Assembly (NCBI GenBank): GCA_021787985.1
Contig: JAJYLG010000001.1
Coordinates: 50,163 to 114,162 of the forward strand
Reading direction: 5' to 3'
Length of the DNA stretch: 64,000 bases
Origin: Chloroflexota bacterium
GTDB lineage: Bacteria > Chloroflexota > Dehalococcoidia > DSGV01
The position numbers were made by a program, and so were the translations under genes. Below the pieces are notes generated by a model. That model made no database searches. It was not told where the DNA came from and saw only the letters and a program-made list of their open reading frames with translations. Positions 7,487 through 53,234 of the stretch are shown here, piece after piece. Numbering within the stretch: the first letter of the stretch is position 1; every line of letters begins with the position of its first letter.

Positions 7487-7495
7487 CCGGCCTTC

Positions 7496-9424: not shown

Positions 9425-9470
9425 TGTCCCCCCACCCGTCCCTCGGATCCGCGTAAGGATGGCGTTTCCG

Positions 9471-11520: not shown

Positions 11521-11526
11521 GGCGGG

Positions 11527-11555
11527 ATTATCGACTATCGGTCATACTGGGTCAA
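11527..11555 (-). promoter_or_regulatory. Sigma-70-like promoter (TTGACC-N17-GATAAT) carrying the conserved 14-mer CGATAGTCGATAAT, directly upstream of the GntR start
   Basis: In gene orientation the -35 TTGACC is at 11550-11555 and the -10 GATAAT at 11527-11532. The predicted TSS falls at the A of the GntR ATG. The same 14-mer and ~50 nt of flanking similarity recur at 15661-15700. Confidence 0.55.
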
Positions 11556-11685
11556 GACGGCCGCCGCTCCCCCCGCCGGGCCCGCGCCGCCCCACTCGTC
11601 CGCGGGCTCGCTGCGCCTGGGATGCCGCTCGCCGGTTGCGTCGGGGCCCGCCAACCGCCCCGTCACCGAAGGGAGTGCTCGTTCG

Positions 11686-12831: not shown

Positions 12832-12860
12832 GCCTCGCGCTCGTGGGGCTGACGTCAGGT

Positions 12861-14096
12861 CTATTCAAAGATCCCCGCGGCCTCGTAGGCTGCCATCTCG
12901 TCGTCCGAAAGGCCGAGGATCTCGCGGCAGACCCAGTCCCGCGCTTCCCCCAGCAACGGCGCCGCTCGGCGCGGCTGCGCGACCAGGTCGGAGAAACGGA
13001 ACGGGCTGCCGTGGCATCGATACCTGCCCATCTCCGGGTGGTCCAGCACCGCAAACGTGCCGCGGAAGCGGAACTGTGGGTCCGCGAAGAGATCTTCCCC
13101 TTTCGCCACTGCGGCCGCGGGCACGCCCACCGCCTGCAGCCGACGCACGAGGTCGTTCGCCTCGAACCCGGCGGTCCAGGCGGCGAGCGTCGCCTCGAGC
13201 GCGTCCTCGTGCCGTTTCCGCTCCAGGAAGGTCGCGAAGCCCTCGTTCTGGCACAGATCTTCCCGCCCCATCTCGGTGCAGAGCGCCGACCACTGCGCGT
13301 CCGTCCGCACCGCGATGGCGACCCAGCGGTCTTCACCCCGGCAGGGGAAGACCCCGTGGGGAGCGGCGTACGGGTCTCGGTTGCCTCGGCGCACCGCGGC
13401 GGCGCCGCGAGTGGCGGGAAGCTGCTCACCCAGCAGGCCCGGAAGCGCGAACTGGCAGGCGACCTCGTACTGCGAGAGATCAACGTACTGTCCCCGACCC
13501 GTCCGCCGCCGGTACTCCAGCGCGACGAGCACAGCCACGGAGACGTAGTGCAGCGCGATGAAATCCGCGTACGCGGAGTACGGCCCGGTGGGTGGCCGGT
13601 CCGGCCAGCCGGTGACCTCGTACCAGCCGGTGAGGGCGGATGCCTGCTGGCCGTAGCCGCGGTGCGTGGCGTGAGGGCCGGTTTGCCCCTGCAGGCATTC
13701 GCTGACCATGATCAGGTCCGGACGAACCCTCCGCAGATCTTCGTACGCAAGCCCCCAGCGTGCCATCACTCCGGGCACGAACGTCTCGACGACCGCGTCC
13801 GCCCAGGGAAGCAGGCGCTTGAAGAACTCGCGCGCGGCTGGCTTCTGCATGTTGAGCGCCAGGGAACGCTTGTCCGAGTTGTAGACGGCGAAGTAGCCGC
13901 TGCGGTTCAGTCCTCGTACGTCGCCCGCATACGGTGAACCGAGTCGCGTGGTATCCGGGTGCACGCTCGATTCGACGCGCAGCACCGTCGCGCCCCACAT
14001 GGCCAGCAGCTTCGTGGCGGCCGGCCCGGCCACGGTCGTGCCGAAGTCCAGGATGTGGACGCCTTCCAGGGGCAGTGTGGGTCGTTCGCCGGCCAT
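12861..14096 (-). CDS. Family III CoA-transferase, paralog 3
   Basis: Contains ...VHILDFGTTVAGPAATKLLAMWGATVLRVES... and ...RRTGRGQYVDLSQYE..., the CaiB/BaiF fold signature. Confidence 0.8.
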   Translation of the reverse strand: MAGERPTLPLEGVHILDFGTTVAGPAATKLLAMWGATVLRVESSVHPDTTRLGSPYAGDVRGLNRSGYFAVYNSDKRSLALNMQKPAAREFFKRLLPWADAVVETFVPGVMARWGLAYEDLRRVRPDLIMVSECLQGQTGPHATHRGYGQQASALTGWYEVTGWPDRPPTGPYSAYADFIALHYVSVAVLVALEYRRRTGRGQYVDLSQYEVACQFALPGLLGEQLPATRGAAAVRRGNRDPYAAPHGVFPCRGEDRWVAIAVRTDAQWSALCTEMGREDLCQNEGFATFLERKRHEDALEATLAAWTAGFEANDLVRRLQAVGVPAAAVAKGEDLFADPQFRFRGTFAVLDHPEMGRYRCHGSPFRFSDLVAQPRRAAPLLGEARDWVCREILGLSDDEMAAYEAAGIFE

Positions 14097-14097
14097 C

Positions 14098-15357
14098 TCA
14101 GACCACCCCCAGGGCGAACAGCAGCTCGAGCTCTTGCGAGCTCAAGCCGAGCTCATCCACGAGCACGGCACGGTTGTGCTGCCCGAGTCGGGGTGCCGGA
14201 CCTCGGACGACCCAGGGTGCGCCCGTGGTATGAACCGGCACCCCGGGATACCGCAGCACGATCGCTCGTGCCGTGTCCGCGACCTCTCGCCAGGAAGCGC
14301 GCGCCGCAAGCTGGGGGTCGGCGAGCACGTCCGCCAGCGTGTTGACCGGGCTGAACATGTGTCCGTCGCGGACGGCTGCTTCCAGGAGCTCCGCCTTCGT
14401 CTTGGTGCGCAGGAAAGCGGTGAAGGGCTCGAGGAACCGGTCGACCTCATCGGGGGGTAGGCCCGCGGGATCGAAGGTGGCCCAGTCGGTCTGCTTGAGC
14501 CATTCCGGTGCCGCGCCTTCGGAATCCATCCACTCCATGAGCTTGCGGGCGGTCCGTGCGCCGCCGTAGAAGGTCATGAACATCCAGACCACCCAGCCAT
14601 CCTTGCATTGATAGAGGGTGCGCGAGCGGCGTCCGGGGCCGAGGTCGCGCCACATTCCTTGTCGCTGGAGATTGACGCCGCTGAGATCGGCGAACGCGTA
14701 GGTGTGCGTCAGCATGGACAGCGGCACCTCCTGCGCCGCCACGTCGACGTGTTCGCCGTGGCCGGTTGCGAGGCGGCGAAAGTGGGCCGCGAGGGCGCCG
14801 ACCACGCCGGCCATCGCCAGGTGCAGGCTTGCCTGCGGCGGGAGCCCCACCCGCAGCGGCGCCCGGTCGGGATCCCCGACCATGTGCATGTACCCGCCGA
14901 GCGCCCAGGTGAGCAGGTCGTCCCCCGCGTACGAGCGATACGGCCCTTCCTGCCCGTACGGCGTGAGCGACACCAGGACGACGCGTTCGTTCTGCGCCCT
15001 CAAGTCTTCGTAGGCGAGTCCGCGCGCCGCCAGATAGCCGGGCGGAAACCCTTCGACGACGAAATCCGCCCCCGAGACGAGCTTCCGGAACAGCGCCTGG
15101 CCGTCGCGAGTGTCGAGGTTTAGCGTGACGCTCTGCTTGCCGGCGCCGTATCCCAACCAGAACAGCCCGCGCTCGAGGCCCGGCTCGCCGTCGGCGAACG
15201 GGCCGAGGCGGCGAGCCGGGCTGCCCCCCGGCGGCTCAACCGCGATGACCCGCGCCCCCAGGTCGGCGAAAGTGCGGCCGAAGAGCGCCGTCTCCGTCGT
15301 CGCCAGCTCCAGCACGACATAGGGCGCGAGCAGGTCCTCGTGTGTCTCGTTGGCCAT
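14098..15357 (-). CDS. Family III CoA-transferase, paralog 4
   Basis: Starts at the ATG at 15355-15357 (MANETHEDLLAPYVVLELATTETALFGRTFADLGARVIAVEPP...) with a GGAGGA RBS 13 nt upstream. The in-frame upstream extension to 15660/15708 is low-complexity. Confidence 0.75.
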   Translation of the reverse strand: MANETHEDLLAPYVVLELATTETALFGRTFADLGARVIAVEPPGGSPARRLGPFADGEPGLERGLFWLGYGAGKQSVTLNLDTRDGQALFRKLVSGADFVVEGFPPGYLAARGLAYEDLRAQNERVVLVSLTPYGQEGPYRSYAGDDLLTWALGGYMHMVGDPDRAPLRVGLPPQASLHLAMAGVVGALAAHFRRLATGHGEHVDVAAQEVPLSMLTHTYAFADLSGVNLQRQGMWRDLGPGRRSRTLYQCKDGWVVWMFMTFYGGARTARKLMEWMDSEGAAPEWLKQTDWATFDPAGLPPDEVDRFLEPFTAFLRTKTKAELLEAAVRDGHMFSPVNTLADVLADPQLAARASWREVADTARAIVLRYPGVPVHTTGAPWVVRGPAPRLGQHNRAVLVDELGLSSQELELLFALGVV

Positions 15358-15660
15358 TTCGCTGCTCGTTTCCTCCAAGCCTGCCTCCTCGGCGAACGAT
15401 GAGGTCGGATTGTCCACGGGGGCTCCCTGCTCGCCTCGGTGGCCCGTAACTTCCCTCGCCGCCGGCAGCAGGGGCCGACGCGCGGCGGCGCAGGAGGGAG
15501 CGTGGACGGGCCTTGCCGATGCTTCGCCGGCGCGGCGAGCCGCGGTCGCAGGCGAGGCCGGCAGTTCCTCCGCAAGCAGCCCATGCTGCCGAACGAGGGT
15601 GGGCCAGCGGCGGAAGGAGCGCGGCTGGCGCGGGCAACAGAGAGCGGCCCACCGGGCCAT

Positions 15661-15689
15661 ATTATCGACTATCGACCAAAATGGATCAA
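15661..15689 (-). promoter_or_regulatory. Second copy of the promoter/operator element (TTGATC-N17-GATAAT with CGATAGTCGATAAT)
   Basis: This is the same architecture as the 11527-11555 element. It lies ~300 nt upstream of the CoA-transferase 3/4 gene pair. Confidence 0.5.
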
Positions 15690-15770
15690 CGCCGCCCCCG
15701 CTCCCCACGCTTCACTGCGCCCGCCACCTCGCACTCGGCGGCTTCCGATGATTCGGGCAGGCATCCGCGC

Positions 15771-18715: not shown

Positions 18716-19342
18716 CTACGTTGCCAGCAGCCAGTCGACGACGCGCCGGTACTGCGCAAGCGGCACCTCGCCGACAACGCGAACGGCGCCGGCCGCGTCG
18801 GCGAGCAGCACCGTCGGCACCGCGGTGATGCCGCGTGTCTGAGCCTCGATGAAGTCGGCGAGCACCGCTGCCCGCTGTGTGCCCTCGTCGAGGTCGCGCT
18901 GGAAGCCCGCCACGTCCAGCCCCGCGCTGTCGGCCACCTGGATGAGCACGTCTCGCTGTGAGATGTCCCGGTTGAGCTCGAAGTAGGCGCGCAGCAGCGC
19001 CTCGTGGTAGCGAGCGAATGCTTCTGCACCCTGCCGCTCGGCGCACTTTCCGGCCTCCAGGGCCGGCAGGCTGTGTGAGGGCATGTCGCGGTCGTCGGGC
19101 CACGGGTGGAAGGTGACGCCATCCGGCGCGCCCATCTCTGCGGCCATTCGCCAGGACTCGCGCGTGTGGTCGTCGGGGCGACGGCCCTCGGCCTCAGGCT
19201 CAGGTCGCAGCGGGTAGGCTTTCCACGTGACGTTCACGCTTCCCGCGTACGTGTGCGTGATCTTGCGCAGACGAACCGCCGCGTTGTAGCACCACGGTCA
19301 GAGGTAATCCGAGTACGCGGTGACGATGACTGGCCCAGCCAT
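18716..19342 (-). CDS. DsbA/FrnE-like thiol-disulfide oxidoreductase with in-frame TGA (predicted selenocysteine, UPWC motif)
   Basis: Translation from ATG 19340-19342 reads MAGPVIVTAYSDYL-TGA(19298-19300)-PWCYNAAVRLRKI.... The TGA sits where DsbA/FrnE proteins have the first Cys of CPWC. The downstream ORF 18716..19237 is in the same frame and continues a DsbA fold (...GITAVPTVLL...). A GAGG RBS is present. A hairpin lies 14 nt after the TGA. Confidence 0.7.
19266..19283 (-). other. SECIS-like stem-loop downstream of the DsbA-like TGA
   Basis: The mRNA forms CGCGG-CGGUUCGU-CUGCG (5 bp stem including a G-U pair, loop with GGUU), starting 14 nt after the UGA. Confidence 0.35.
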
Positions 19343-23599: not shown

Positions 23600-24688
23600 C
23601 TACTCGCGCAAGTCCGCGACGCGCGCGACCGGCGTTCCGTCCCGTCGGCACAGCGCCCGCGTCACCGGACGCGTCTGGTCCCCGAACGTGGGTTGCCAGC
23701 TACTGTGCTTGCCGGCGCCTCCTACCACGATGACGGAGATCGCCTCCGGCGCATCTGCGATGGGCACCATCGTGTCATCTCGGTCTGGGAGCCCATTGCG
23801 GTGCGCCAGGAAGGCCCGGTACTCGGGGCCGAGGCGTCCCAACGGGAACCGTGCCTGCTCGAACAGGAACTGCTTCACCGTGCGCTTCGAGAACCCGTCC
23901 CGGGCAAGCGTGGCGGCGTGCTCTGGCCCCAGGCTCAGCAGCGGCCAGCCACGGCCGAGGAGATTGTTGCTTCCGGCCTCGCCCATGGCGCCCGCGATCA
24001 GGTGGAGGATGCCGATCCCGGTGGTGCTGTAATGGTCCTGAATGTTGTGCGGGCCCTCGCAGCCGAAGACGGTCACCGTGCTGGTGTCTGGCGCGAACCC
24101 GCGCTCGACGTGCAGCGGCTCCCAGGGATTTTGCTCTTCGTTTTCGGCCACGCAGTAGGCGATCTTTGCCGGGTTCCCTTGAGTGGCGCGATCGCCGCGA
24201 CCGGGCAGCCCTCCGCCGATGTTCATCAGGATGAGGCGCATGGCTCTGCCGATCGTTGCGTTCGCGCGAAAGCCCTGGCCGAACGCGTTGTAACCGGCAT
24301 TGATGCTGAGCTCGCGCGCGACTGGCCCGTTGACGACGACCAATGGCGCGACCGGGTGGGTTGTCGCCTGGATCGAGTCGATGTTGAACGCCGGGTCGGC
24401 GATCGCCTCCACTGCCGCGATCACGACCGGTAGGAATTCCGGCCGGCAGCCCGCCATGGCCGCGTTGATCGCGATCCTTTCCACCGTGGCCTCGCCCTGC
24501 CTCGGAGGCAGCACCGCGACGACCTCCTGGCGATCCCGGTCTGTCCAGCCGAGGAGCTCCTCGACGAGGTCCTCGGTGGGCGGCACGATCGGCAGGCCGT
24601 CGGTCCAGCCGCGTTCTTGGTAGAGCTCGTTGATCGCTCGATACGAGTCCTCGACGCGCAGCGTCCGGGCCGCCGCTCCGTCAGCCAC
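23600..24688 (-). CDS. Uncharacterised conserved protein, UGSC-associated partner A (paralog of 31116..32156)
   Basis: It shares N-terminal ...GWTDGLPIVPPTE... and a central ...GQGFRANATIGRAMRLILMNIGGGLPG... block with the paralog. The GTG start (second GTG, 24686-24688) lies 6 nt after a GGGAGGGA RBS and overlaps the UGSC-A stop by 8 nt. Confidence 0.65.
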   Translation of the reverse strand: MADGAAARTLRVEDSYRAINELYQERGWTDGLPIVPPTEDLVEELLGWTDRDRQEVVAVLPPRQGEATVERIAINAAMAGCRPEFLPVVIAAVEAIADPAFNIDSIQATTHPVAPLVVVNGPVARELSINAGYNAFGQGFRANATIGRAMRLILMNIGGGLPGRGDRATQGNPAKIAYCVAENEEQNPWEPLHVERGFAPDTSTVTVFGCEGPHNIQDHYSTTGIGILHLIAGAMGEAGSNNLLGRGWPLLSLGPEHAATLARDGFSKRTVKQFLFEQARFPLGRLGPEYRAFLAHRNGLPDRDDTMVPIADAPEAISVIVVGGAGKHSSWQPTFGDQTRPVTRALCRRDGTPVARVADLRE

Positions 24689-25256
24689 GCTCACTCCCTC
24701 CCTGAACGCCCGGAGCTGGCAGCGGCACGGCGGCGCTCACCGCTGTTGCCACCGCATCGGCGAGGTCCTTCGCCTTCGCCACCACCTCCTCCTCGGGGAT
24801 GCCCCCCAGCGGGTGCTGCGTGAGCGCGATCGGAAGCTCGGGCAGGCCGCGGTTCCGCGCCTCGAGCCGTGCGAGGGCCTGGAACTCGTCCGTACCGACC
24901 ACTACGGTAGGAACTCCCTGCTTCTCGAGCAGGATGGCGCCGTGGATACTCCACGACGTGCACGACCCTCAGTCCGCGCTGCCCACGATGACGAAGTCGC
25001 ACGTCATCAGGTCAGCCAGCACGTCCGGGGGAGGCGGTCCGGCGATGGGCTTCTCCCGCTTCAACACTTCGCGTATGCCGTGAAGCTCCTGCAGCCGCTT
25101 GGCGACCGACAGCATGAGGATGTCCGCGTTCGGCTTGCCGTTGTCCAGGATCCCGACGCGCGCGCCGGCGAGGCTGTCCAGTCGCGGCGCCAGCCTGACG
25201 GAGGCCACCTTGGGTTCGGCCGTCGGGTCATAAACTCTCGTCCAACGCTCGGTCAT
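24681..25256 (-). CDS. UGSC-motif small selenoprotein A (in-frame TGA at 24969-24971)
   Basis: Starts at ATG 25254-25256 with an AAGGGAG RBS. The ORFs 24969..25295 and 24681..24902 are in one frame and joined by a TGA: ...DFVIVGSAD-U-GSCTSWSIHGAILLEKQGVPTVVVGTDEF.... The paralog 32176..32718 has a TGA at the same aligned position. Confidence 0.7.
24939..24957 (-). other. SECIS-like stem-loop downstream of the UGSC-A TGA
   Basis: The mRNA forms GUCGUGG-AGUAU-CCACGGC (7 bp stem, 5-nt loop with GU), starting 11 nt after the UGA. Confidence 0.45.
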
Positions 25257-32175: not shown

Positions 32176-32718
32176 TTACGCTTCCAGCGGGCGCGGCGCC
32201 GCCACTTTGGCGACCACGTCGTCGATCGCGTTCCTGATCACGCCGCGCGAGCTCTCGGTGTCGCCGAACTCGGTTACCTCGGTTGGCGGAAGCACCACCA
32301 TCGGGGAGCTGCTCGCCCCCTTACCCTTGAACGTGACCGTGGCGAGGTTGACGAACCGCTCGGTCACCAGTACCACGGACGGGATGCCCCGTCGAATCAG
32401 CTCGATCGTGTCGTGGACACTCCACGCGGTGCAGGACCCTCAGTTGGCGAGCCCCACGATGGCGATGTCGGCGTTCTCCGTCGCCTGTTGGAGCACGGCC
32501 TCCGACGCGGCGGCGGCGATGGGCACCTCGAACTCGAGGACCTGCGCGACGCCGAACTCATTGACCAGCGTGCCGCGCATCTCGTCGACCAGCTTGTTCA
32601 TGCTCTGCCAGCCGTTGTTGAGAAAGACGACGGACTTGCCCCGCAGGTCTTGCGGGGCGAACTCCGCGGTCACTCGGGTCGCACGAAACGCACCAGCCGT
32701 CGGTTCTACGATCCGCAT
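32176..32718 (-). CDS. UGSC-motif small selenoprotein B (in-frame TGA at ~32440-32442)
   Basis: Starts at ATG 32716-32718 with a GGGAGAAACAC RBS. ORFs 32440..32718 and 32176..32376 are in the same frame: ...DIAIVGLAN-U-GSCTAWSVHDTIELIRRGIPSVVLVTERF.... This is the same architecture as UGSC-A. Confidence 0.7.
32411..32425 (-). other. SECIS-like stem-loop downstream of the UGSC-B TGA
   Basis: The mRNA forms CGUGG-AGUGU-CCACG, 14 nt after the UGA. It is near-identical in shape to the UGSC-A hairpin (loop AGUGU versus AGUAU). Confidence 0.4.
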
Positions 32719-32946: not shown

Positions 32947-33065
32947 ACTCGCGGTCGATGAGGCGAAGCGGAGCGACGGGGCAATCGCTTTCCCCGGACG
33001 CAGAGGGGAGAAGACGCCGAGGGCCGCTTCCTTGCGAGGGTCCCTCGGCATGAGGTTCGTGTGGC

Positions 33066-33141
<76 letters not shown>

Positions 33142-33492
33142 GGGCAAGCGGTAGCCTATCACAGGCCGACCACGCGCTCAATTGCTTGTGGCGCTCCAAG
33201 ACCGGCGGAACAGAGGGAGGGCGAAGGGGTCACGCGGTCTGGTTGGCCTCTCGATGCGGAGTGCACGCAGCTTCCTGCCGGCGGAGCTCGCGGAGTCGGG
33301 CTCCCGACCACGGGGTGCCGGTGGGGAGATCCTCTGGCCGCGACGCCGCGGTCTCACTCCGTTGGCGGACCGACGAACCGAGCCGCAGAACAGCGGGAGA
33401 GCGGAGCCGACCGGCTCCGCTTTCCTGCCACGCGGTGAGCCACGCAGCGGACCCTGCGTTTTTCCCCCGTTGCTCCTCCAACGACCGGGCTC

Positions 33493-34227
33493 CTAGCGCT
33501 TGCGCAGCGCCAGCAGGCCACTCGCGCCGGCCAGCCCGGCCAGGGCCAGGGCGCTCAAGATGAGCGCGGCTTGCGGCCAGCCCTGTGAGGCTTGACCGGA
33601 GCCGGTGTTCGGCGGCACCACCGTACCCGGCAGCGTCGGCGTAGTGCCACCGGGCGTCGCCGATGCGCACGGCGATCCCGTGGCGTCTACGCATGGCGTT
33701 GCTGTCTCCGCCGGGGTAGACGTCGCGCAGGGCGCCGTCGGCGGGCACGGCGTCGCAGTCGTCGGCGGCGGAGTGGATGTCCCGCAGGGCGCCGTCGGCG
33801 GGCAGGGCGTCGCGGTGGTGCCGGGCGTCGCCGTTGGGCACGGCAATCCCGCCGCGTTCACGCATGGCGTGGCTGTCTCTGTTGGAGTGGACGTCGCGCA
33901 GGGTGCTCCGGTCGGTGCGCATGGCGTGGACGTCGGCGTGCACACCGCTCCTGCGGGACACGTTGGCGTCGACGTCGCGGTAGGCGTCGCGCAGGGCACC
34001 CCCGGCACGCACGTGGTAGGGGCCGCCTGTGCCAGCGCAACCTTCGTCCGCAGCGGCCCACCACCCACCGTCGCTCCGGCCAGGCCTGCCAGTGCAAGCG
34101 CGACCAGCGCCAGAGCGAGCACGGCTGTCGCCCGCCGGCCGACATGAGAACGCGTGCGCTCCATCGCCTCGCGCTCGGCCGTTTGCCGTCCGCTTTCCTT
34201 GCCCGATGTCACGGGGTCGTTGTTCAT
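33493..34227 (-). CDS. Thr/Pro/Cys-rich repetitive secreted/surface protein with C-terminal TM segment plus basic tail (sorting-signal-like)
   Basis: Starts at ATG 34225-34227 after a GGAGGAG RBS. It has an N-terminal hydrophobic segment (AVLALALVALALAGLAG), ~14 copies of a TPC/TPCPPTAPC-type repeat, and a C-terminus ...LPGTVVPPNTGSGQASQGWPQAALILSALALAGLAGASGLLALRKR. The DNA shows tandem repeats. Confidence 0.55.
   Translation of the reverse strand: MNNDPVTSGKESGRQTAEREAMERTRSHVGRRATAVLALALVALALAGLAGATVGGGPLRTKVALAQAAPTTCVPGVPCATPTATSTPTCPAGAVCTPTSTPCAPTGAPCATSTPTETATPCVNAAGLPCPTATPGTTATPCPPTAPCGTSTPPPTTATPCPPTAPCATSTPAETATPCVDATGSPCASATPGGTTPTLPGTVVPPNTGSGQASQGWPQAALILSALALAGLAGASGLLALRKR
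33600..34010. repeat. Imperfect tandem DNA repeats inside the Thr/Pro/Cys-rich gene
   Basis: GTGGACGTCGCGCAGGGCG-type units of ~30-45 nt recur. Confidence 0.5.
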
Positions 34228-34637
34228 GTTGCTTTCTCCTCCCGGTGAGAAACCGTGCGGTGTTCGCCCTTACTTGCTCGCGGACCAGCGTCCCCTCGTG
34301 GCACAGGTCCGAAACCTGTGCCACAGGAGACCCGCGGTGCGCACTTCATTCCTCGTGTCCCCGCCCCTCGCCGGACGCCCGATCCTGTCGCTCCGGGCTC
34401 GGGGCGCTGGCGAGCCGGAGTGTGATGAAGTCGGTCAGGTCGGCGAGGGAGGAGAAGTACAGCCGCTGCCCCGAGGGCACGTGCTCGACCGAGCCGGGCC
34501 ATTGGCCGGGCCCCGCGCGGCCCGGCTCGTGCCAGATGCGCACGATGAACAGATGCTGCGGCCGTCGCGCGGGCTCGGCCAATTTCGCCTCCTTACGGTA
34601 TCCGTGACACTGCGGGCTCAGGTGGGTCACCCGACGG

Positions 34638-35381
34638 CTAGAGTCGCGCCGCGAGCTTCTTGGCCAAGGCGATCAGGGCGTCCTTCCTGCCGGCGGCCTC
34701 GGACTCGGACCCTTTGTACGAGAGGGTGACAAGCGTACCGCCCTTCAAGAAGACCAGCACCGCCTCGCTTCCGCCGTTGGCGATGCCCAGCTTCGCCTCG
34801 TCACCGATGCCGGGAACGGGCGTGCCCTCAGTGCTGCTATCTTCGAATTGGCTCTTGGCCAGGTCGGCGTAACCGGCTGGGACCTTCATGACGTCGAGCA
34901 GCAGGTGCTCGCCTGGGCCGAGCATGCTCGCGGCGGCGGCGGCGTCCGAGCCCCATGCGCACACCGAGACGCTGAGCGTTGGGGCACCCGCGCGTCCGCT
35001 GGTGCTGTGTGGGGGAAACCGCTTCACCACCGTGAGCGTCGGCGAGATTGAGGCCGCCTCGGCCGGACTGACCAGGCTGCAGGCGTCCGCGCTCGTGGTG
35101 GTGCCCTTCGCGGTCGTGGACCCGCCCGGTGTGGCGGGCGGGGTTGTCGATGTGGTGGTGGCCTGGGCTGCCGTGGTCGTCGCGGTTTGTGAGCTGGCCT
35201 GCGAGCGGCTCGGCCCCTTCGCCCCGCAGGCGGCCAGTGCCAGCGTGAGCACGGCCAAGCTCGCGAGTGCAGTCGCTCGAGCTCGTCGCATGGCCCGCCG
35301 GGGGCCGCCTGCGGGGCGCCCCCCGCCGGCCGCGGTCGTTGGTGCCGAGAGCGCCTGTCGACGATACATCAAGATGTGCAT
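34638..35381 (-). CDS. Hypothetical lipoprotein with Thr-rich low-complexity linker
   Basis: The ATG at 35379-35381 is preceded by a strong RBS GGGAGGAGAAAAGGAGG. A lipobox LTLALAACG lies ~50 aa in. The true start could be the ATG at 35291. Confidence 0.45.
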   Translation of the reverse strand: MHILMYRRQALSAPTTAAGGGRPAGGPRRAMRRARATALASLAVLTLALAACGAKGPSRSQASSQTATTTAAQATTTSTTPPATPGGSTTAKGTTTSADACSLVSPAEAASISPTLTVVKRFPPHSTSGRAGAPTLSVSVCAWGSDAAAAASMLGPGEHLLLDVMKVPAGYADLAKSQFEDSSTEGTPVPGIGDEAKLGIANGGSEAVLVFLKGGTLVTLSYKGSESEAAGRKDALIALAKKLAARL

Positions 35382-35602: not shown

Positions 35603-36238
35603 TCAGGCCAGCGTGCCGGGGCCCGCGACGTTGACCAGCAGCACGTCGCCCGGGAACACGCCAGTCATCGTGTGGCTCGTGCCGCCGGGGAACACATACT
35701 CCCAGGCGACGCTGGTGCCGCTGGCCACCAGCTCGTAGGCCGTGGTCCAGCTCGTCCCGGCGACGTGGGCCGTCAGGTAGCCCTGGATGGTGGCGGTGCT
35801 GCTCTCCATCGGTCCCTTCCACACCACCACGTTGAAGCCGGCCGCGAAGGATTCGGACGCCGGTGGAGGCGTGGGCGTCGGTGAAGGAGTCGGGCTCGGC
35901 GAAGGTGTCGGCGTCGGCATGGCGATCACGAGCTTGCCGACCTTGTTGGTGCCGGATTCGGTGAACCACATGGCGCCGTCGGGGCCGGTGACGATGCCCT
36001 CGGGGAAGCTGCTGGCAGTTGGGATGGCGTACTCGGTGATGGTCGCGCCGGCTGTCAGTGTCGCCGGCCTGCTAGCGCCAGCCGCCCGACTCGCGGGCAG
36101 CCACCAGCTCCGCGTTGAAGGGGAGCCGCAGGAAGGTGACGCGGGACTCCGCGTCCGGGATGGCCGCGGCCTTGGCCTGCAAGGTAGCGTGGGCTTCATC
36201 GAACAGCTCGTGCGCCCGGCGTCCCTCTCCCAGCGCAC
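35603..36238 (-). CDS. Hypothetical protein with a single Vgb-lyase-like beta-propeller repeat and a Pro/Thr linker
   Basis: The ORF overlaps the 3' end of the SARP regulator gene, and there is no ATG after the regulator stop at 36072. The repeat is ...ITEYAIPTASSFPEGIVTGPDGAMWFTESGTNKVGKL.... Possibly a gene remnant. Confidence 0.3.
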   Translation of the reverse strand: MRWERDAGRTSCSMKPTLPCRPRPRPSRTRSPASPSCGSPSTRSWWLPASRAAGASRPATLTAGATITEYAIPTASSFPEGIVTGPDGAMWFTESGTNKVGKLVIAMPTPTPSPSPTPSPTPTPPPASESFAAGFNVVVWKGPMESSTATIQGYLTAHVAGTSWTTAYELVASGTSVAWEYVFPGGTSHTMTGVFPGDVLLVNVAGPGTLA

Positions 36239-39200
36239 GGTAGGTCTGCGCCCCCGCCCAGAGGATGTACTGGGGGTGTATCATCGCGTCGGCCGTGCAG
36301 CCAAGAAGGTCGAGCAGTTCATCCGCGCACGCCCGCGCCTTAGCCAGGTTGCCGGCGCGCAGGTAGGCTACGGTGAGGTCGCACAGGTCGGCGCCCAGGT
36401 CAGCCGGGCGGTCAAGTCGGCGGCGGATGGCAAGGCCGGCCTCCATGTGCTCGACGGCCTGGGCCAGACGGCCGAGCTCCCGCTCGGCGGCTCCCAGGTT
36501 GCCGAGGGCCGTGCCTTCCAGGACCGGGTTGCGGATCGCGCGCGCGAGCTCCAGCCCGCGGCGCGCGGCGGCCTCGGCGGCCGGATGGTCGCCCTGGAAG
36601 AACGCCGCCATCCCGGCGTTCAGTGCGCATGCCGCCTGCCCGCGCAGATCGTCGAGGGAGCGGAACAGCTCCTCGGCCTTGTGGAACGAATCCACGCTTT
36701 CCGTGTACTGGCCAAGGCCGCCCGCAAGCATGCCAGCGTTGACCAGGACGGCGGCCTCGCCCTGCCGCTTGCCCAACGCGTGATATAGGCTTGCGGCGCG
36801 CTCGTAGTGCTGACGGGCCTCCTGGATGCGGAACAGCCGCGCCGCCACCATGCCGAGAGATGCGTGGGCGCCCGCCTCGCCCTCGCGGTCGCCGATTGTG
36901 CGGCACAAGTCGAGCATCTGCTGGCCCAGCGCACCGGCGGAGTCGAAACGCTGCTGTGCGAACAGCGCTCCTACGGCCGACCCCAGCGTCTGTACCATCA
37001 GCGACTGGTTCATCTGCCACCCGCGAAACGCGAGGGCAGTCCGGATCAGGTCTTCCGCCTCCTCGAACCGGCCCTGCTGAACGGCGACGTCGGCCAGTAG
37101 GCAGCAGCACTCCGCCTGACCGCCCGCGTCGTCGCGTGCCTGACGCAGCCCAAGAACTCGCTGTAGCGCGACCCAGGCCGCGTCGTATCGATTGAGCAGC
37201 AATTGATGGACGGCTTCGGCTTGCAGCGCCTCGACCTGCCAGCGGGGCCGCTCGGCAGCCGCCGCGTGCAGCGCCTCAATAAGGGCGGCTTCGGCCTGGC
37301 GCTCGCCGAGCGCTCGGTGAAAGAGAACCTGGCGGTGAAGCAGCTCACACAGCAGGTCGCCGTCGCCCAGGCTGCGCGCCAGCCCGCCCAACTCCGCCAG
37401 GTCGGCCCGCTGTGCTTCTCGGTCACCGCGGCGGCTGTGGACGCGCTCGCGCAAGAGTAGCGCGTCACACCGGGGCCGCGGGGCAGACGTCAGCTCAAGG
37501 CAGCGGGACAGATGGGCCAGTGCCTCCTCGCCGGCGTGGAGCGCCAGGGCGTGGCGAGCCGCGCGCAGGGAGTAATGGGCAGCGCGATCGGGGTCACCGC
37601 CCCGGTCGAAGTGCAAGGCCAGCTCAGCGGTCAGGTCGTCGAGCCGCTGGGAGTACAGCTCCTCCATAACGCGCGCAACGCGGCGGTGCCGGCGCCTGCG
37701 TGCCGGCGCCGGGATCCCGGCGTAGACCGCGGCCTGGATCAGGTGGTGGGTGAAGGCGTAGTCGAAGCGGCTGCCACCGCCTACCTCGCGCACCAGGTGG
37801 TGGTCGTGCAGCTCGCCCAGCGCATCGAGGACGCGGTCCTCCTCCCAGCCGCTCACCTCACGCGCCAGCTCGACGTCGAACGCCGTGCCGGCGACCGCAG
37901 CGACCTCGGCCAGCGCGCGAGCCGTCGGCGACAGCCGCGCCAGGCGATCGGCGACGGTCGCACGCAGACCGCCGGAGAGCGACGACGGGCGTGGCCCCAG
38001 CTCCGGCAGCGCCGCGGCCCCCGACTCCAGCAGCTCGTGGACCAGCTCGTTCAAGAAGAGCGGATTGCCCTCGCTGGCCGAATGCAGGCGCCGCGCCAAC
38101 TCGGGTAGCGGCATACGCTCCGACCCCGCCCTGGTGCTCAGACCCGGCGCCCGTTCCACCATGCGCTCCACCGCGGAGACCGGCAGCCGTTCCAGGGCGA
38201 GGTGAGTGATCAGGTTCTCCCGCTGCAATCGCCGGCGTAGGTCTCGCAACGGGTGGGCGCGTCCCGTCTCTTCCTCCCGATAGGTCACCAGCACGAGCAA
38301 CGGATGACGTGGAGCGCGACGAGCCAGGACCTCCAGCAGGGTGACCATTGCGGCGCCGCCCCAGTGCAAGTCCTCCAGGATGACGAGCAGCGGACGCGGC
38401 TGCGCCAGCCCCTCGAGGACGCGCGCCAGAGCTTCGAACAAGCGCGCCTGCTCGCGCTCTGGGTCGAGCGGTGGGAGCGCGACCGGCTTGCCAGCGCGGG
38501 CACGCAGCTCAGGGAGCAATGGACCGGCGGCAGCGAACCACAGCGGGTCCAGGTCCAGCGCAGCCAGCAGCGGCAGGGCGGAGCGCAACGCCTCGACGAG
38601 GGCGTGGTATGGCATTGGCTCGGCCGGCCGCGCCGTCCCGGCCAGCACGCGCGCCGCTTCAGCCCGGACCACGAGCGCGAGCTCGGCGGCCAGACGGGAC
38701 TTTCCTATCCCGGCCTCCCCGCCGACCAGGACGACCCCGCCGCGACCACGGGCCGCCCGCGTCCAGCAGGCGCGGAGCTGTTCCGGCTCGGCCTCGCGCC
38801 CGACGAACGGCAGGGGCGCCGAGCGCTTCTCCTCCTCGTTGGCGGCGGCTGTCTCCCTCGCCGGCTGCACGCCCGGGATCTGCTGACCCCGGACGACCGC
38901 CTCGTACAAGGCGGTCGTCTCCGGCATCGGCAGGGCCGCTAGCTCCTCCTGAAGGCGGCGCACGAAGCGCCTGTATTCCAGGACCGCGCCGGCGCGGTCG
39001 CCAGGCTCGTAGCGCAAGGCGATCAGGCGCTGCGCCACGTCCTCGCGCAGCGGATCCTTCGCCAGGAGCTGCTGGCAGTAGGCGATGGCCCGACGGTGGT
39101 CACGGTGCGTCCAGCTCTCGCTGATGAGCCGGTCCAGGTGTGCCACGTACAGGTTGCGAAGGCGCTCGCGCTCGGCGAACAGCCAATCCTCGTAGACGTT

Positions 39201-39590
39201 CTCCAGCAGGTCGGCAGTGTAGAGCGCCACCGCGCTGGCCAGGTCGTCGACGGTGGAGCCCGCTTGCTCGAACTGGGATACATCGAGCCAGTAGTCCGCG
39301 GCAGGGTTCCAACGGACCGTCTTGGCGTCGCTCAGCAGCCAGGGGTGGCGCGGCGGGGCGGCGGGCAGGGCGCGTTGCAGGTGGTGGAGATGCCGGCGCA
39401 GGTTGGCGCGGGCATTCGCTTCCGATTCGTCGGGCCAGAGAGCGAACGCGAGGGTATCCCGCCCGATGGGTTGCGAGGCGTGGAGCAGCAGATACGCCCA
39501 GAGCGGCAGCGTCTTGGGCGGAGCCGCCAGCCGAAACGGCTGCCCATCGGCGAGGAAGCGTGGCTGGCCGAAGAGGTGTATGCGCAGCAT
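36072..39590 (-). CDS. SARP/AfsR-family regulator: OmpR-type winged helix plus BTAD, NB-ARC-type ATPase and C-terminal TPR region (~1170 aa)
   Basis: From ATG 39588-39590 the protein reads MLRIHLFGQPRFLADGQPFRLAAPPKTLPLWAYLLLHASQPIGRDTLAFALWPDE..., then a Walker A VLVGGEAGIGKSRLAAEL, then a long helical repeat region. Confidence 0.8.
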   Translation of the reverse strand: MLRIHLFGQPRFLADGQPFRLAAPPKTLPLWAYLLLHASQPIGRDTLAFALWPDESEANARANLRRHLHHLQRALPAAPPRHPWLLSDAKTVRWNPAADYWLDVSQFEQAGSTVDDLASAVALYTADLLENVYEDWLFAERERLRNLYVAHLDRLISESWTHRDHRRAIAYCQQLLAKDPLREDVAQRLIALRYEPGDRAGAVLEYRRFVRRLQEELAALPMPETTALYEAVVRGQQIPGVQPARETAAANEEEKRSAPLPFVGREAEPEQLRACWTRAARGRGGVVLVGGEAGIGKSRLAAELALVVRAEAARVLAGTARPAEPMPYHALVEALRSALPLLAALDLDPLWFAAAGPLLPELRARAGKPVALPPLDPEREQARLFEALARVLEGLAQPRPLLVILEDLHWGGAAMVTLLEVLARRAPRHPLLVLVTYREEETGRAHPLRDLRRRLQRENLITHLALERLPVSAVERMVERAPGLSTRAGSERMPLPELARRLHSASEGNPLFLNELVHELLESGAAALPELGPRPSSLSGGLRATVADRLARLSPTARALAEVAAVAGTAFDVELAREVSGWEEDRVLDALGELHDHHLVREVGGGSRFDYAFTHHLIQAAVYAGIPAPARRRRHRRVARVMEELYSQRLDDLTAELALHFDRGGDPDRAAHYSLRAARHALALHAGEEALAHLSRCLELTSAPRPRCDALLLRERVHSRRGDREAQRADLAELGGLARSLGDGDLLCELLHRQVLFHRALGERQAEAALIEALHAAAAERPRWQVEALQAEAVHQLLLNRYDAAWVALQRVLGLRQARDDAGGQAECCCLLADVAVQQGRFEEAEDLIRTALAFRGWQMNQSLMVQTLGSAVGALFAQQRFDSAGALGQQMLDLCRTIGDREGEAGAHASLGMVAARLFRIQEARQHYERAASLYHALGKRQGEAAVLVNAGMLAGGLGQYTESVDSFHKAEELFRSLDDLRGQAACALNAGMAAFFQGDHPAAEAAARRGLELARAIRNPVLEGTALGNLGAAERELGRLAQAVEHMEAGLAIRRRLDRPADLGADLCDLTVAYLRAGNLAKARACADELLDLLGCTADAMIHPQYILWAGAQTYRALGEGRRAHELFDEAHATLQAKAAAIPDAESRVTFLRLPFNAELVAARESGGWR

Positions 39591-39899
39591 GGGAGCATCT
39601 ACCGTCCCGCAGTAGCGCCCGCCGGGCAACGTGGCCCGTCGAGACGAGGAGCGGTTGAACCGCTCTTGCCTTACGTTCTCCTCTAGCAGCGAGAATACCC
39701 CATTCCGGCCGTGACGCCGCGCTCTCGGTGGTGACAGCGAGAACCCCGCGGCCCGCCTTGCGCGGAAGGACGCCCCGCATCCGTCCTACGCCCGGGAGCC
39801 CGGCTGCTCAGGAACCAGAAAGGCAAGCGGTGTCCGGTGGGTGCCGACCGAGTACAACCCGTTGCGGCCGTTGGCGGCCGCACCCTACACTTGCTGCGC

Positions 39900-44177: not shown

Positions 44178-44280
44178 AGATGACACCTCAAGTGTCTCGC
44201 CGACGCTACTCGCGCGGTCGGGCGGCGAGGCGTAATGAAGACGCTTGATCATAAGCACTCGCGCAACGGGGAGGACAGCG

Positions 44281-44838
44281 ATGACGACAACCATCAACCG
44301 CAACGGCATCAACATCGATCAGCTCATGCAGACGATTGAGGCCATCCGCCAGGACCCGGAGCTGGCGCGGTTCCAGTTCCGGGCACACAGCGAGTGGCAA
44401 GGCGGCGCACGCTCCGCTACCAGGATTCAGGGTTTCTATGGCGCCGGCCAAGAGGACAGCTCGCGTTCGCGGCCGTTCGAGGTCGGTGGGGACGAGCCGC
44501 CGCTGCTCCTGGGCACGGACACGGCTCCCAACGCGGTGGAGACGGTGCTGGCGGCCCTCGCCTCCTGCCTGACAGTGGGCTACGTCTACAACGCCGCGGC
44601 GCAGGGCGTCAAGATCGAGTCGCTGGACTTCGACCTGGAGGGCGATGCGGACCTGCGGGGCTTCCTGGGCCTGTCGGAGACGGTCCGGCCGGGGTTCGGC
44701 GGGATCCGGCTCACCTACCGCGTGAAGGCAGATGCACCTCGCGAGAAGCTCGAAGAGCTATGCGAGTACGTTCAACGCACCTCACCGGTGCTGGATATCA
44801 TCCGCAATCCTGTGCCGGTGTCGATCGAACTGCGGTAG
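44281..44838 (+). CDS. OsmC/Ohr-family protein
   Basis: Contains ...FRAHSEWQGGARSATRIQGFYGAGQ... and ...LAALASCLTVGYVYNAAAQGVKIESL.... A GGGGAGGA RBS precedes it. Confidence 0.75.
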   Translation: MTTTINRNGINIDQLMQTIEAIRQDPELARFQFRAHSEWQGGARSATRIQGFYGAGQEDSSRSRPFEVGGDEPPLLLGTDTAPNAVETVLAALASCLTVGYVYNAAAQGVKIESLDFDLEGDADLRGFLGLSETVRPGFGGIRLTYRVKADAPREKLEELCEYVQRTSPVLDIIRNPVPVSIELR

Positions 44839-44885: not shown

Positions 44886-45857
44886 ATGAGAGGACGACTC
44901 CAGGCGGCGCTGGTCGACCGCGACGCGCTTCGGTCTCAGATCCGGGACAAGTACACGGTGGTGGCCCTCGAACCGCAGACGGGCTTCCATTTCCACACGG
45001 GCCGGCCGCTCGCCAGGATGCTCGGCTACGACGAGGCGGACCTGGACCGGCTGCCGTCCGCCGTGGCGGAGTCCTTCGCCGGCACGGGCAACCCGTTCGC
45101 CTTCGGACGGCTGGCGGAAGGCGAGGTGGTCGTCGACATCGGGTGCGGCGCCGGGTTCGACACCTTGTTGGCGGCTGGGCAGGTCGGGCCACGGGGCCGA
45201 GTCATTGCCGTGGACATGACCCCCGCCATGCTCGACAAGGCCGCCGCGGGCGCCCTGGTCCTCAACCTCCGCAACGTCGAGGTACGCCACGGCGTTGCGG
45301 AGGAGCTGCCGGTGCCCAGTCAATCGGCCGACGTTGTCATCAGCAACGGCGTCATGAATCTGTGCCCGGACAAGCTCGCGGCCATGCGCGAGGTCCGCCG
45401 TGTGCTGCGGCCAGGCGGGCGTTTCCAGATCGGCGACCTGGTCGTGCACCAGGAGGTGCCACAGGACGCGAAGGACGACATCGACCTGTGGTCCGGCTGA
45501 ATCGCCGGGGCTCTGCTGGAAGCAGAGTGGGACTGGGTCCTCAAGCACGCCGGGTTCATCGACGTGCGCTGGGGCCGCCAGGTGGATGTCTTCGCGGGCT
45601 CCAAGCACGAGTCCGACGCTCAGGAATTCGGTGCGCGTGGCGTCACGTTCGCTGGTAGGAGACCCATGCGGGCGGCCGACCCCGCGCCCGTGTGGGCGGA
45701 GCGCGACTCTGATGGCGGCCGCCGGTGCGCGGTCCCGGTCGCGTCGGCTGGCCAGCAGCCAGGCCCTTCGTGTGGTAAGATGCAGTCACGGGGACGAAAG
45801 GGCTCGACAGGGGCCGGCGTGCTCGGGTTGCAGGCCGAGGTGCCATCAACCTCGTAA
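44886..45857 (+). CDS. ArsM-like SAM-dependent methyltransferase with in-frame TGA (45498-45500) at the conserved catalytic Cys position. Predicted selenoprotein; 3' end uncertain.
   Basis: Contains a GCGAG SAM motif (VVDIGCGAGFDTLL) and ...VVISNGVMNLCPDK.... Around the TGA it reads DIDLWSG-TGA-IAGALLEAEWDWVLKHAGFIDVRW..., and typical ArsM sequence continues in frame after it. The nominal stop at 45855-45857 overlaps the tmRNA 5' end by ~68 nt. Confidence 0.55.
45511..45527 (+). other. SECIS-like stem-loop 10 nt downstream of the ArsM-like TGA
   Basis: CUCUGC-UGGAA-GCAGAG: a 6-bp stem with a 5-nt loop. Confidence 0.4.
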
Positions 45858-46143
45858 ATCAGGTGGCAAACAAGTAACTGGCGAACCACAACTCGCCCTC
45901 GCTGCCTAAGAGCTAGGCAGCCGTCCGCCACCGCCTCGTCCCGGTGGGTGGTGAACGGGCGACGCAATGCCGGGATGCCGCGCAGCGCTCGCTGACGACG
46001 CGCGCGAAAGATCAGTCAGCCCGCCCCGAAGGGACGCCGGCGGTAGCGGCCCGAGGGGCTCAAACAAAGTGCCGCAGAAGCCTGTGGATGCCCGGGGCGT
46101 ACGCTCACTGGACCGGGGGTTCAATTCCCCCGCGTCTCCACCA
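45790..46143 (+). ncRNA. ssrA: tmRNA (ssrA), tag peptide GEPQLALAA
   Basis: The 5' GGGGACG pairs with the 3' CGUCUCC-A-CCA. The T-arm is GGGGG-UUCAAUU-CCCCC. The tag ORF GGC GAA CCA CAA CTC GCC CTC GCT GCC TAA runs 45880-45909. It is followed by the hairpin CTGCCTAAGAGCTAGGCAG. Confidence 0.85.
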
Positions 46144-51755: not shown

Positions 51756-52952
51756 TCAATAGAACATCGACCCGCCGTCAGCCACGAACTGCTCGCCCAC
51801 TTCCTGCTGAACCAGCTCGTTCGGCCCGATGTAAATCTGGACGATCTTGGCGTCGCGCATGTGCTTCTCCACACCGACCTCGCGGCTGTACCCCAGCGAG
51901 CCCATGAGCTGGACCGCCCGCGTCGTGACCTCCATCGCCACATCGCTCGCGTACACCTTGGCCATCGATGCCCAGTACAGGCTGTGCTGGCCCGGCTGAC
52001 TGTTGTGCCAGGCCGCACGCCAGGCCAGCAGCCTTGCCGCGTCCAGCTTGACGGCGGCATCGCCCAGCAGGTAACGGACTACCGGATGATCGCTCAGGAC
52101 CTCGGTCCCCACGGAACGCTCGCGCAGCCAGGCCACCGCTCGCTCCAGCGCGCCCCGCGCCATGCCGATGGAGATCGCCGCGGCGCCAACCCGGTTGTAG
52201 GCCAGCGTCCGCTGCAGTAGCCGCAACCCGTCGCCGACCTCGCCCAGCAGATGGTCGCGCGGCACCCTGACCATGTCGAAGATGATCTCGCCGTTTCGAT
52301 CGGCGTTCATGCCCATCTTGTGGACTGCCGGGCCGACGCTCAGCCCCAGCGACTCTCGCTCGACCACGACCAGGCACGAGCCTTTGGCGCCCGCCTGCGC
52401 GTCGGTGGTCGCCACCACCGTGTAGAGCGAGGCCACGTCGAAGTTCGATGGCCATAACTTGGTCCCGGTGATAACCAGCTCGTCACCGTCGGCCCGGACC
52501 CGCGTTTGGACGGTACGCATCGCCTGCTTCGGATCCTCGATCGCGCCGCCGCCTGCCGGTTCGGTCATCGCCATGCATACCAGATACGGCTCAGGCTCGG
52601 CGCAGCGTCGCAGCCACTCCTCCCGGCGCTCGCGCCGCGCCGCCATGAGGATCGGCGTCTGCCCGAACCACGAAGCACCGATCGCCGTGGCGATGCCGCC
52701 ATCGCCGGCCGCCAGCTCTTCCAGCACCACGGCGCAGTCGAGGTTGTTGCCCCCTGCTCCCCCGTACGCCTCGGGCACCGGCAGCGCCAGGATCCCGGCT
52801 CCGGCCGCCGCACGGATGATCTCGTGTGCAATCCGGCCTTCGCGGTAGTCGGCGTCGACTTCCTGCAGCCTCGGCGAGATCTCCTGCCGGACGAACTCCC
52901 GCACTCGTTCCCTCAATGCGAGCTGCTGCGCTGTCAGTCGGAAATCGGCCAT
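51756..52952 (-). CDS. Acyl-CoA dehydrogenase
   Basis: Starts at ATG 52950-52952 after an AAGGAGGTG RBS. Reads MADFRLTAQQLALRERVREFVRQE... and has ACAD motifs. Confidence 0.85.
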   Translation of the reverse strand: MADFRLTAQQLALRERVREFVRQEISPRLQEVDADYREGRIAHEIIRAAAGAGILALPVPEAYGGAGGNNLDCAVVLEELAAGDGGIATAIGASWFGQTPILMAARRERREEWLRRCAEPEPYLVCMAMTEPAGGGAIEDPKQAMRTVQTRVRADGDELVITGTKLWPSNFDVASLYTVVATTDAQAGAKGSCLVVVERESLGLSVGPAVHKMGMNADRNGEIIFDMVRVPRDHLLGEVGDGLRLLQRTLAYNRVGAAAISIGMARGALERAVAWLRERSVGTEVLSDHPVVRYLLGDAAVKLDAARLLAWRAAWHNSQPGQHSLYWASMAKVYASDVAMEVTTRAVQLMGSLGYSREVGVEKHMRDAKIVQIYIGPNELVQQEVGEQFVADGGSMFY

Positions 52953-53234
52953 CGTGTCACCTCCTTGGCCCACTGGGGCCTTCGACGGCGCTCGGGGGAT
53001 CGCGGCGCCTGCTCAACGGCGCTGTGCGGTTCGTGTGGGCGTGTCTGCGAGAAAACGCGCGATCTGCCGCCTGGTGCCAACCGTACCGCAACGGCCTCCA
53101 TCCACCAAGGGTGCGCGGCTGCGGCCACGCACCTTCGCCCTCACGCCGGCGCGGACCGCGTGGAACTCGCGAGCGGGGCGACACGTTTCATCCTTCGGGA
53201 ACCGTATGCGAGAATGGCACGGAGGCGGACCGGG

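Follow-up and report, generated by a model that had tools for sequence, protein, structure and literature searches.

We analysed a 64,000-nt stretch of DNA (hereafter, the window) from an uncultured Chloroflexota bacterium (GenBank assembly GCA_021787985.1, contig JAJYLG010000001.1, positions 50,163 to 114,162), with a G+C content of 69%. On its minus strand, bordered by a tRNA-Lys gene on one side and by a small open reading frame (ORF), a lipoprotein gene and a gene for a SARP-type regulator on the other, lies a gene for a 244-amino-acid protein composed largely of Thr (45 residues), Ala (45), Pro (37) and Gly (24), with exactly 14 Cys, a single His and a mature part devoid of Met (Table 1). 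An earlier sequence-only reading had described the product as a Thr/Pro/Cys-rich, repetitive envelope protein with about 14 Cys and a sortase-like C-terminal signal, encoded behind a GGAGGAG ribosome-binding site and flanked by tRNA-Lys, lipoprotein and SARP-regulator genes. The site and the neighbours were all found where that reading had placed them, and both its core observation and the envelope-protein architecture stood up; its argument that the gene occupies a variable site found no support.

Table 1. The gene for the Thr/Pro/Cys-rich protein, its elements and its neighbours (window positions; aa, amino acids; CDS, coding sequence).
Feature	Position	Strand	Remarks
tRNA-Lys(CTT)	33066-33141	minus	adjoins the CDS studied here
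GC-rich hairpin, 8-bp stem, GGUC loop	33401..33420	minus	73 nt 3' of the stop codon
CDS, 244-aa Thr/Pro/Ala/Cys-rich protein	33493..34227	minus	244-codon ORF, ATG start, stop codon 33493-33495
C-terminal hydrophobic segment, aa 220-241 (22 residues), and RKR, aa 242-244	33496..33570	minus	Kyte-Doolittle peak 2.06
GWP, aa 216-218, directly before the C-terminal hydrophobic segment	33574..33582	minus	kept in the sole tail-sharing protein
VPPNTG, aa 204-209, candidate sortase-type recognition motif	33601..33618	minus	T208-G209 in register with TG of the GVDTG model
LPGT, aa 199-202, second LPxT-like element ahead of the main motif	33622..33633	minus	TLPG also in P0001
Repeat tract, aa 69-197, seven units of ~19 aa, form TPC-x5-7-C-x6-12	33637..34023	minus	14 Cys
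N-terminal hydrophobic segment, aa 33-56, ATAVLALALVALALAGLAGATVGG	34060..34131	minus	Kyte-Doolittle peak 2.45
Charged N-terminal region, aa 1-32, ending RSHVGRR	34132..34227	minus	positive charges adjoin the hydrophobic segment
Shine-Dalgarno sequence GGAGGAG	34236..34242	minus	8 nt 5' of the ATG; direct sequence reading
Strong hairpin between upstream small ORF and CDS	34290..34331	minus	minimum free energy -56.5 kcal/mol, z = -3.3 against shuffles
Small conserved-looking ORF, 94 aa, directly upstream	34346-34630	minus	called as 78 aa on the ENA contig (34346-34582); no Pfam or NCBIfam match
Lipoprotein, lipobox LAAC, weak DUF3558 match	34638-35291		upstream of the CDS
BTAD+AAA_16+TPR (SARP-type) regulator	36072-39629		upstream of the CDS

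The architecture points to an exported envelope protein anchored at its C-terminus. The first 32 residues form a predicted cytoplasmic n-region, and the hydrophobic segment behind them, already recognized in the sequence-only reading, is predicted to act either as a Sec signal peptide, with a possible cleavage site between AGA and T, or as a signal anchor. Single-sequence AlphaFold2 prediction, run without an alignment, returned helices at aa 5-51 and 221-242 with coil between them. The presence of two hydrophobic segments, with RR and RKR next to them, supports this topology. A Pfam search with the protein gave a single, sub-threshold match (DUF7524) on the N-terminal helix. We also considered and rejected two other export classes. 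A twin arginine is present (GRRATAV), but no TAT-signal model matched the N-terminal 72 aa at E ≤ 10; and the signal peptide does not end in a lipobox ([LVI][ASTVI][GAS]C), the first Cys lying at aa 73, 17 residues beyond the hydrophobic segment, in the context PTTC. As a separate observation, the N- and C-terminal hydrophobic segments share the string ALALAGLAGA, with 81% DNA identity over 32 nt (34071-34102 and 33522-33553), which may be chance in Ala/Leu/Gly-rich helices or the trace of an internal duplication.

Between the two segments, the repeat tract covers about 130 aa, less than the ~150 aa first estimated, and all 14 Cys fall inside aa 73-187. They form seven pairs (C73/79, C90/96, C103/110, C122/130, C142/148, C161/167 and C179/187), every one with a C-x5-7-C spacing, and are invariant across otherwise diverged repeat copies. 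Pro precedes 11 of the 14 (TPC five times, APC three times, and VPC, LPC and SPC), and the other three stand in TTC, PTC and AVC; the claim that each Cys sits in a TPC, LPC or SPC context is thus largely but not entirely correct. The repetition also extends to the DNA, as had been proposed: a 57-nt unit occurs in five copies of 61-82% identity, and a 99-nt stretch is duplicated 171 nt apart at 80% identity. Repeat spacings (57, 18, 96, 93 and 171 nt) are all multiples of 3. The copies have diverged too far for Tandem Repeats Finder to report the array, and neither Pfam nor NCBIfam returned a match for the tract, which AlphaFold2 models as coil and which appears to contain no globular domain.

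The even number of Cys, their strict pairing and invariance, the absence of CxxC, CxC and CxxCH motifs and the predicted extracytoplasmic location together favour disulfides over metal sites, and we rate the chance that the pairs are oxidised into stapling disulfides as roughly even. In Chloroflexota, disulfides are reported for 42.7% of predicted isopeptide-bond domains, which are largely surface-protein domains (PMC12617251). Fourteen regularly spaced Cys in a flexible scaffold could instead serve as ligands for metals such as Cu(I), Zn or Cd, making the protein a surface metal buffer or sensor, a possibility that the sequence-only reading had raised as well. We regard this as improbable: beyond the missing motifs, the protein offers one His and no Met in its mature part, its Cys content (5.7% of residues) is well under metallothionein levels, the tract is predicted to lie outside the cell, where paired thiols usually oxidise, and no metal-resistance or transport gene lies within about 8 kb on either side. 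A metallothionein or CxxC-type metal-binding protein was rejected on the same Cys content and the same lack of CxC and CxxC clusters.

Thr stands 2-4 residues ahead of nearly every Cys, a spacing that would also suit a ribosomally synthesized and post-translationally modified peptide (RiPP) precursor of lanthipeptide, ranthipeptide or SCIFF type with Thr-Cys cross-links, and the large regulator nearby gives a partial match to a TOMM kinase/cyclase model. That match is far below threshold (159.8 bits, cutoff 705.75) and takes in no more than the AAA/TPR portion of what is otherwise an ordinary SARP-type regulator. A RiPP precursor would not be expected to have two membrane segments and a sorting-type tail, and no lanthipeptide synthetase, radical-SAM or cyclodehydratase gene was found among the major window ORFs scanned. 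The gene context effectively refutes this explanation, which we consider extremely improbable.

The C-terminal tail follows the layout of a sortase substrate. Its aa 198-211 read TLPGTVVPPNTGSG, and RKR stands at the very end, so that the succession of LPGT, PNTGSG, hydrophobic helix and RKR described earlier is borne out by the sequence. Within the stretch VVPPNTGSG, the candidate motif VPPNTG has a PxTG core and fits the pattern (S/P)PXTG, with Pro rather than Leu in its first position; a 10-residue spacer (SGQASQGWPQ, aa 210-219) leads to the helix. The C-terminus has the end typical of sortase substrates, a hydrophobic segment followed by RKR and the stop codon; the N-terminus has a candidate secretion signal, RSHVGRR and a 24-residue hydrophobic segment, with an unusually long n-region of 32 aa. 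Among all ORFs of the window, only this one has a genuine hydrophobic C-terminal segment with a basic tail; the other match in the six-frame translation is an off-frame artefact. When we searched the isolated tail against 18,950 NCBIfam models, only three matched at E ≤ 10, all of them sortase-type signals: GVDTG_CTERM (NF058571), LPXTG_anchor (TIGR01167) and Rumino_NPXTG. In the best of these alignments, profile position 8 of the GVDTG model falls on T208. The PEP-, PGF-, GlyGly- and MYXO-CTERM models, which represent exosortase, archaeosortase, rhombosortase and myxosortase signals, gave no match at E ≤ 10 with either the whole protein or the tail. A literature search on the GVDTG model returned unrelated papers only, and one on sortases in Chloroflexi/Chloroflexota returned nothing specific.

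One other protein shares this tail. In the metagenomic protein P0001, which is otherwise unrelated to the protein studied here, a signal anchor is followed by an N-terminal region without repeats and then by a Pro/Thr linker. It ends in TLPG...VSPPNAGTG-NEDVKS-GWP-helix-RRSR, compared with TLPG-TV-VPPNTGSG-QASQ-GWP-helix-RKR (51% identity over 39 aa, pairwise E 2e-6); PPN[TA]G is common to both, 10 residues before the helix. This suggests a shared C-terminal module, known from these two sequences only. A profile built from the two tails gave no match at E ≤ 10, and no hit was confirmed when metagenome DNA was scanned with the protein or with the alignment of the tails. For the protein as a whole, no homologue turned up in a word-indexed set of 5.8 billion proteins, and a sequence search of the PDB returned nothing. 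An exhaustive search of 1.84 billion representatives produced three weak matches (E 2e-5 to 2e-4), mostly low-complexity and all to Pro/Thr linkers without Cys; P0001 is one of the three.

From these features we propose, at about an even level of confidence, that the gene encodes a Sec-exported, C-terminally anchored stalk of Thr/Pro with paired Cys and no globular domain, possibly sortase-processed and disulfide-bonded. The exported, C-terminally anchored Thr/Pro stalk itself, as predicted from the sequence, is well supported; what we infer beyond it is which enzyme anchors the protein, that its Cys form disulfides, and what it does. The basic and hydrophobic N-terminal segment would route the protein through Sec, with the signal possibly cleaved; its orientation is evident from the grammar of the sequence. 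The C-terminal motif, hydrophobic segment and RKR would then halt transfer and, by the positive-inside rule, leave a tract of ~165 Thr/Pro/Ala/Cys residues outside the membrane. There the tract would form an extended, probably polyproline-like stalk, and O-glycosylation of its Thr/Pro residues is possible. Oxidised extracellularly, the seven C-x5-7-C pairs could give intra-repeat disulfide loops or inter-chain staples, which would stiffen the stalk and make it protease-proof or cross-link neighbouring chains. VPPNTG would most likely direct cleavage after Thr208 by a sortase-type transpeptidase, an enzyme not found in the window, and attachment to the wall; failing a sortase, the product would remain a type I membrane protein.

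Several observations weigh against this reading, beginning with the frame itself. The region can be read through in four overlapping ORFs, 180-364 aa in length, and the synonymous codon score of the entire gene (0.29) is below that of the lowest reference gene (0.34; reference genes, 0.53 ± 0.10). In the repeat tract, a rival frame of 364 aa (minus strand, 33230..34324) scores 0.60 against 0.18 for the claimed frame, and its G+C contents at the three codon positions, about 0.78/0.52/0.95, have the canonical pattern of the genome. The Thr/Pro/Cys product could accordingly be an off-frame or antisense artefact, the true frame, if any, being the 364-aa ORF or one on the plus strand; an antisense or low-complexity artefact was also what the sequence-only reading had named as its own refutation.

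When tested, this artefact explanation proved quite improbable, although composition alone was not decisive. Runs of ACN, CCN, GCN and TCN codons for Thr, Pro, Ala and Ser in the claimed frame automatically produce the canonical G+C pattern in the 364-aa frame, which is shifted by two bases. Third positions of that rival frame are 74% C, beyond the range of real genes (45% in the reference genes, at most 68% in windows of the same size). They are also the least variable between repeat copies: the 20 differences within the 99-nt repeat pair distribute 8/2/10 over codon positions 1/2/3 of the claimed frame, and in the other six repeat pairings the rival's third position carries the fewest differences in most and the most in none. 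It therefore behaves as a second codon position, not a third, with the caveats that the low variability may partly reflect low base diversity there and that a chi-square pooled over three pairings fell short of significance (p = 0.07). On either side of the repeats, the scores of the rival frame drop to -0.18 and -0.19, its translation is Arg-rich, and it runs past the downstream hairpin toward the tRNA gene, whereas in the C-terminal part the claimed frame reaches 0.63 and no other frame exceeds 0.37. None of the rival ORFs had a Pfam match.

Only the claimed frame is coherent from start to stop, and it alone combines a Shine-Dalgarno sequence and ATG with an export-type N-terminus and a sorting-type C-terminus; its product includes the peptide VALAQAAPTTCVPGVPCATPTATS. 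The identical 244-aa product was moreover called independently on a metagenome contig in ENA that is 99.97% identical to the window. Third positions of the claimed frame are raised in A (16%), and the lipoprotein next door shows the same feature in its Thr-rich linker (5 of 30 codons). A frameshifted gene joining two frames was considered and set aside as unnecessary, the claimed frame being open and coherent throughout. Taken together, the ORF is very probably a real gene, and the case illustrates how, for low-complexity genes of this sort in a high-GC genome such as this one, reliance on frame statistics alone would lead to the wrong frame.

The remaining adverse points concern conservation, structure and the sorting signal. 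The protein sets and metagenome scans yielded no homologue of the repeat tract, and thus no sign of conservation or selection across species. The AlphaFold2 model has low confidence (mean predicted local distance difference test, pLDDT, 48; below 50 in the repeat tract) and lends no structural support to any disulfide geometry, agreeing with an extended, low-complexity tract but saying no more than that. For a signal peptide that is cleaved, 32 residues make a long n-region. With the tail alone, all three sortase-type models score below their curated cutoffs (GVDTG_CTERM, 19.8 bits, and 14.4 with the whole protein, cutoff 29; LPXTG_anchor, 10.2 bits, E 0.98, cutoff 15.9, and not reported with the whole protein; Rumino_NPXTG, 8.6 bits, cutoff 23.5), and the tail of P0001 has no GVDTG_CTERM match, only a weak one to a LAXTG model. 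Neither a sortase gene (Pfam, PF04203, about 45 ORFs scanned) nor a credible ORF with the TLxTC active site was found in the 64-kb window, so that the search for a sortase gene suggested by the sequence-only reading came back empty at this range. Some Chloroflexota lack peptidoglycan, in which case a sortase would have no acceptor. The tail thus appears to resemble a sortase substrate in form and fails every curated threshold, and we did not assign it to those families. What holds of the proposed sortase-like signal is that the three best models are of sortase type and that the motif fits (S/P)PXTG; what does not is a score above any cutoff.

These points also feed an alternative in which no sortase acts: the product would be a type I membrane protein, a two-helix hairpin with cytoplasmic ends and the tract as an external loop, or the substrate of an undescribed enzyme reading GWP at the edge of the C-terminal helix, in the way that exosortases and archaeosortases read PEP or PGF. 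The long, charged N-terminus and the helix at aa 5-51 would suit it, since they resemble a signal anchor more than they do a signal peptide that is cleaved, as would GWP at the start of the helix, kept in P0001. Yet no exosortase, archaeosortase or rhombosortase model matched at E ≤ 10, against three of sortase type; PPN[TA]G is kept 10 residues before the helix, where a plain anchor would have no need of it; and VPPxTG is a proven sortase substrate motif elsewhere. Recombinant Clostridioides difficile SrtB cleaves PVPPKTGDS, a member of the (S/P)PXTG class, between T and G (PMC4155245). On balance we find the alternative without a sortase doubtful, although by no means the weakest of those considered, and place sortase processing of the protein at close to an even chance.

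The protein can be compared with several known systems. C. difficile SrtB substrates such as CD2831 (PVPPKTGDS; PMC4155245) likewise have an N-terminal export signal (a predicted one in the present protein), a Val-preceded Pro-Pro-x-Thr-Gly, a short spacer, a hydrophobic segment of ~20 residues and a basic tail. They differ in coming from a Firmicute rather than a Chloroflexota host and in carrying a functional domain such as an adhesin or hydrolase, where the present protein has a repeat stalk only; its spacer is also longer (10 aa) and includes the conserved GWP. GVDTG_CTERM, the best-scoring curated model, aligns its TG to T208-G209 and its profile end to the helix and basic tail, but the motif here is PPNTG, the score stays below the cutoff and the P0001 tail is left unmatched. 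Pro/Thr-rich stalks and linkers spanning the walls of Gram-positive bacteria and Chloroflexota share the low-complexity Thr/Pro/Ala tract between export signal and anchor. Ordinary Pro/Thr linkers, however, are free of Cys and join a functional domain to the anchor, whereas here the stalk is the whole protein and has seven conserved Cys pairs.

Two further systems are alike in construction. Immunoglobulin hinges (THTCPPCPAP in IgG1, and the repeated hinge of IgG3) consist of Thr/Pro/Cys repeats, with a Pro rod held by inter-chain disulfide staples. Units such as TPCPPTAPC recall them, as an analogy without homology. The long chaplins of Streptomyces, which carry LAXTG, are small, secreted, sortase-anchored structural proteins with no enzymatic domain, and their chaplin domain is hydrophobic and amyloid-forming. 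The present protein is similarly small, predicted to be anchored and non-enzymatic in form, but its Thr-, Pro- and Cys-rich tract is hydrophilic and has no sequence similarity to chaplins.

A bolder version of the proposal would take PPN[T/A]G-x-G...GWP-helix-basic tail as an undescribed Chloroflexota sorting signal, processed by a divergent sortase or an unknown enzyme, and its cargo as a hinge-like polyproline rod whose seven disulfides cross-link or stiffen the surface; we think this unlikely. If the proposed stalk reading is right, it would add a candidate sorting signal (PPN[T/A]G...GWP) to what is known of Chloroflexota surfaces, together with a surface protein made solely of a cysteine-stapled Thr/Pro stalk, in a mostly uncultured phylum whose envelope biology is poorly known. 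In practice, we have one orphan gene and one distant, tail-only relative: the sequence is new, but the type of surface protein is a familiar one, here in a lineage about which little is known, and the immediate gain is an annotation open to testing, not a new principle.

The host was placed with the threonyl-tRNA synthetase gene 6 kb away. Its product is at most 65% identical to anything in the one-genome-per-species GTDB set, with the best matches in Dehalococcoidia and Chloroflexia metagenome-assembled genomes, which points to an undersampled Chloroflexota lineage and not to the actinomycete host that had been deduced from the SARP-type regulator. The genomes with these synthetase relatives contained no syntenic counterpart of the locus and no similar tails. 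The same DNA is present in ENA assembly ERZ27233565 (contig k141_1339019, 126.9 kb), with 7 mismatches in 20.6 kb and none in the gene itself. Three of the seven are adjacent (33059-33061, GTG in the window and AGA in ENA), 5 nt beyond the point where tRNA-Lys ends on its 3' side.

The locus had further been called a typical site for variable surface genes, with repeat copy number to be compared between strains. Islands that target tRNA genes do not insert on the 5' side, which is where the gene is found relative to this tRNA, and this leaves the argument from a variable site beside the tRNA without support; for the same reason we rejected a genomic island at the tRNA. The one other assembly available for comparison has an identical copy, with no variation in repeat number.

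Of the two hairpins around the gene, the upstream one has a perfect core stem of 12 bp and probably either terminates the preceding gene or has a regulatory role, in which case the gene studied here would have a promoter of its own. We found no sigma-70-like promoter for it, an absence that means little in this phylum. The downstream hairpin, a candidate terminator that lacks a U-tract, is clear in itself, but the surrounding region taken whole has only a weak folding advantage over shuffled sequences (z = -1.9). Farther upstream, between the regulator and the lipoprotein, a small ORF (35603-35971, minus strand; 122 aa as called on the ENA contig) has a sub-threshold match to Vgb_lyase/NHL beta-propellers (44 bits, cutoff 50) over a single profile stretch of 44 residues, and may be a fragment.

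Elsewhere in the window, a UGSC-family gene (32176-32718, minus strand) has an in-frame TGA at 32440-32442 just before GSC (…VGLAN-TGA-GSCTAW…), which very likely encodes selenocysteine; both in ORF lists and in the ENA call this gene is broken into two fragments, of 92 and 66 aa. A second member of the family (24681-25256, minus strand) reads …GSAD-TGA-GSCTSW… and is likewise split on the ENA contig (L044, 19997-20284 and 20351-20572). A DsbA/FrnE-like thioredoxin-fold gene without a signal peptide (18716-19342, minus strand) contains an in-frame TGA at 19298-19300, in the context MAGPVIVTAYSDYL-TGA-PWCYNA…, giving the redox motif U-P-W-C. With three selenoprotein candidates in 64 kb, the organism appears to be rich in selenoproteins. 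A member of the OsmC-related '(seleno)protein' family (44245-44838, plus strand) has Cys, not selenocysteine, in its active site (ALASCL). The window also encodes a tmRNA (45790-46143, plus strand; Rfam, 120.5 bits) with the short tag peptide GEPQLALAA. Finally, four paralogous acyl-CoA dehydrogenases and three family III CoA-transferases, interleaved with a branched-chain-type ABC transporter (1893-15708 and 51756-52973), suggest a catabolic island for an organic acid.

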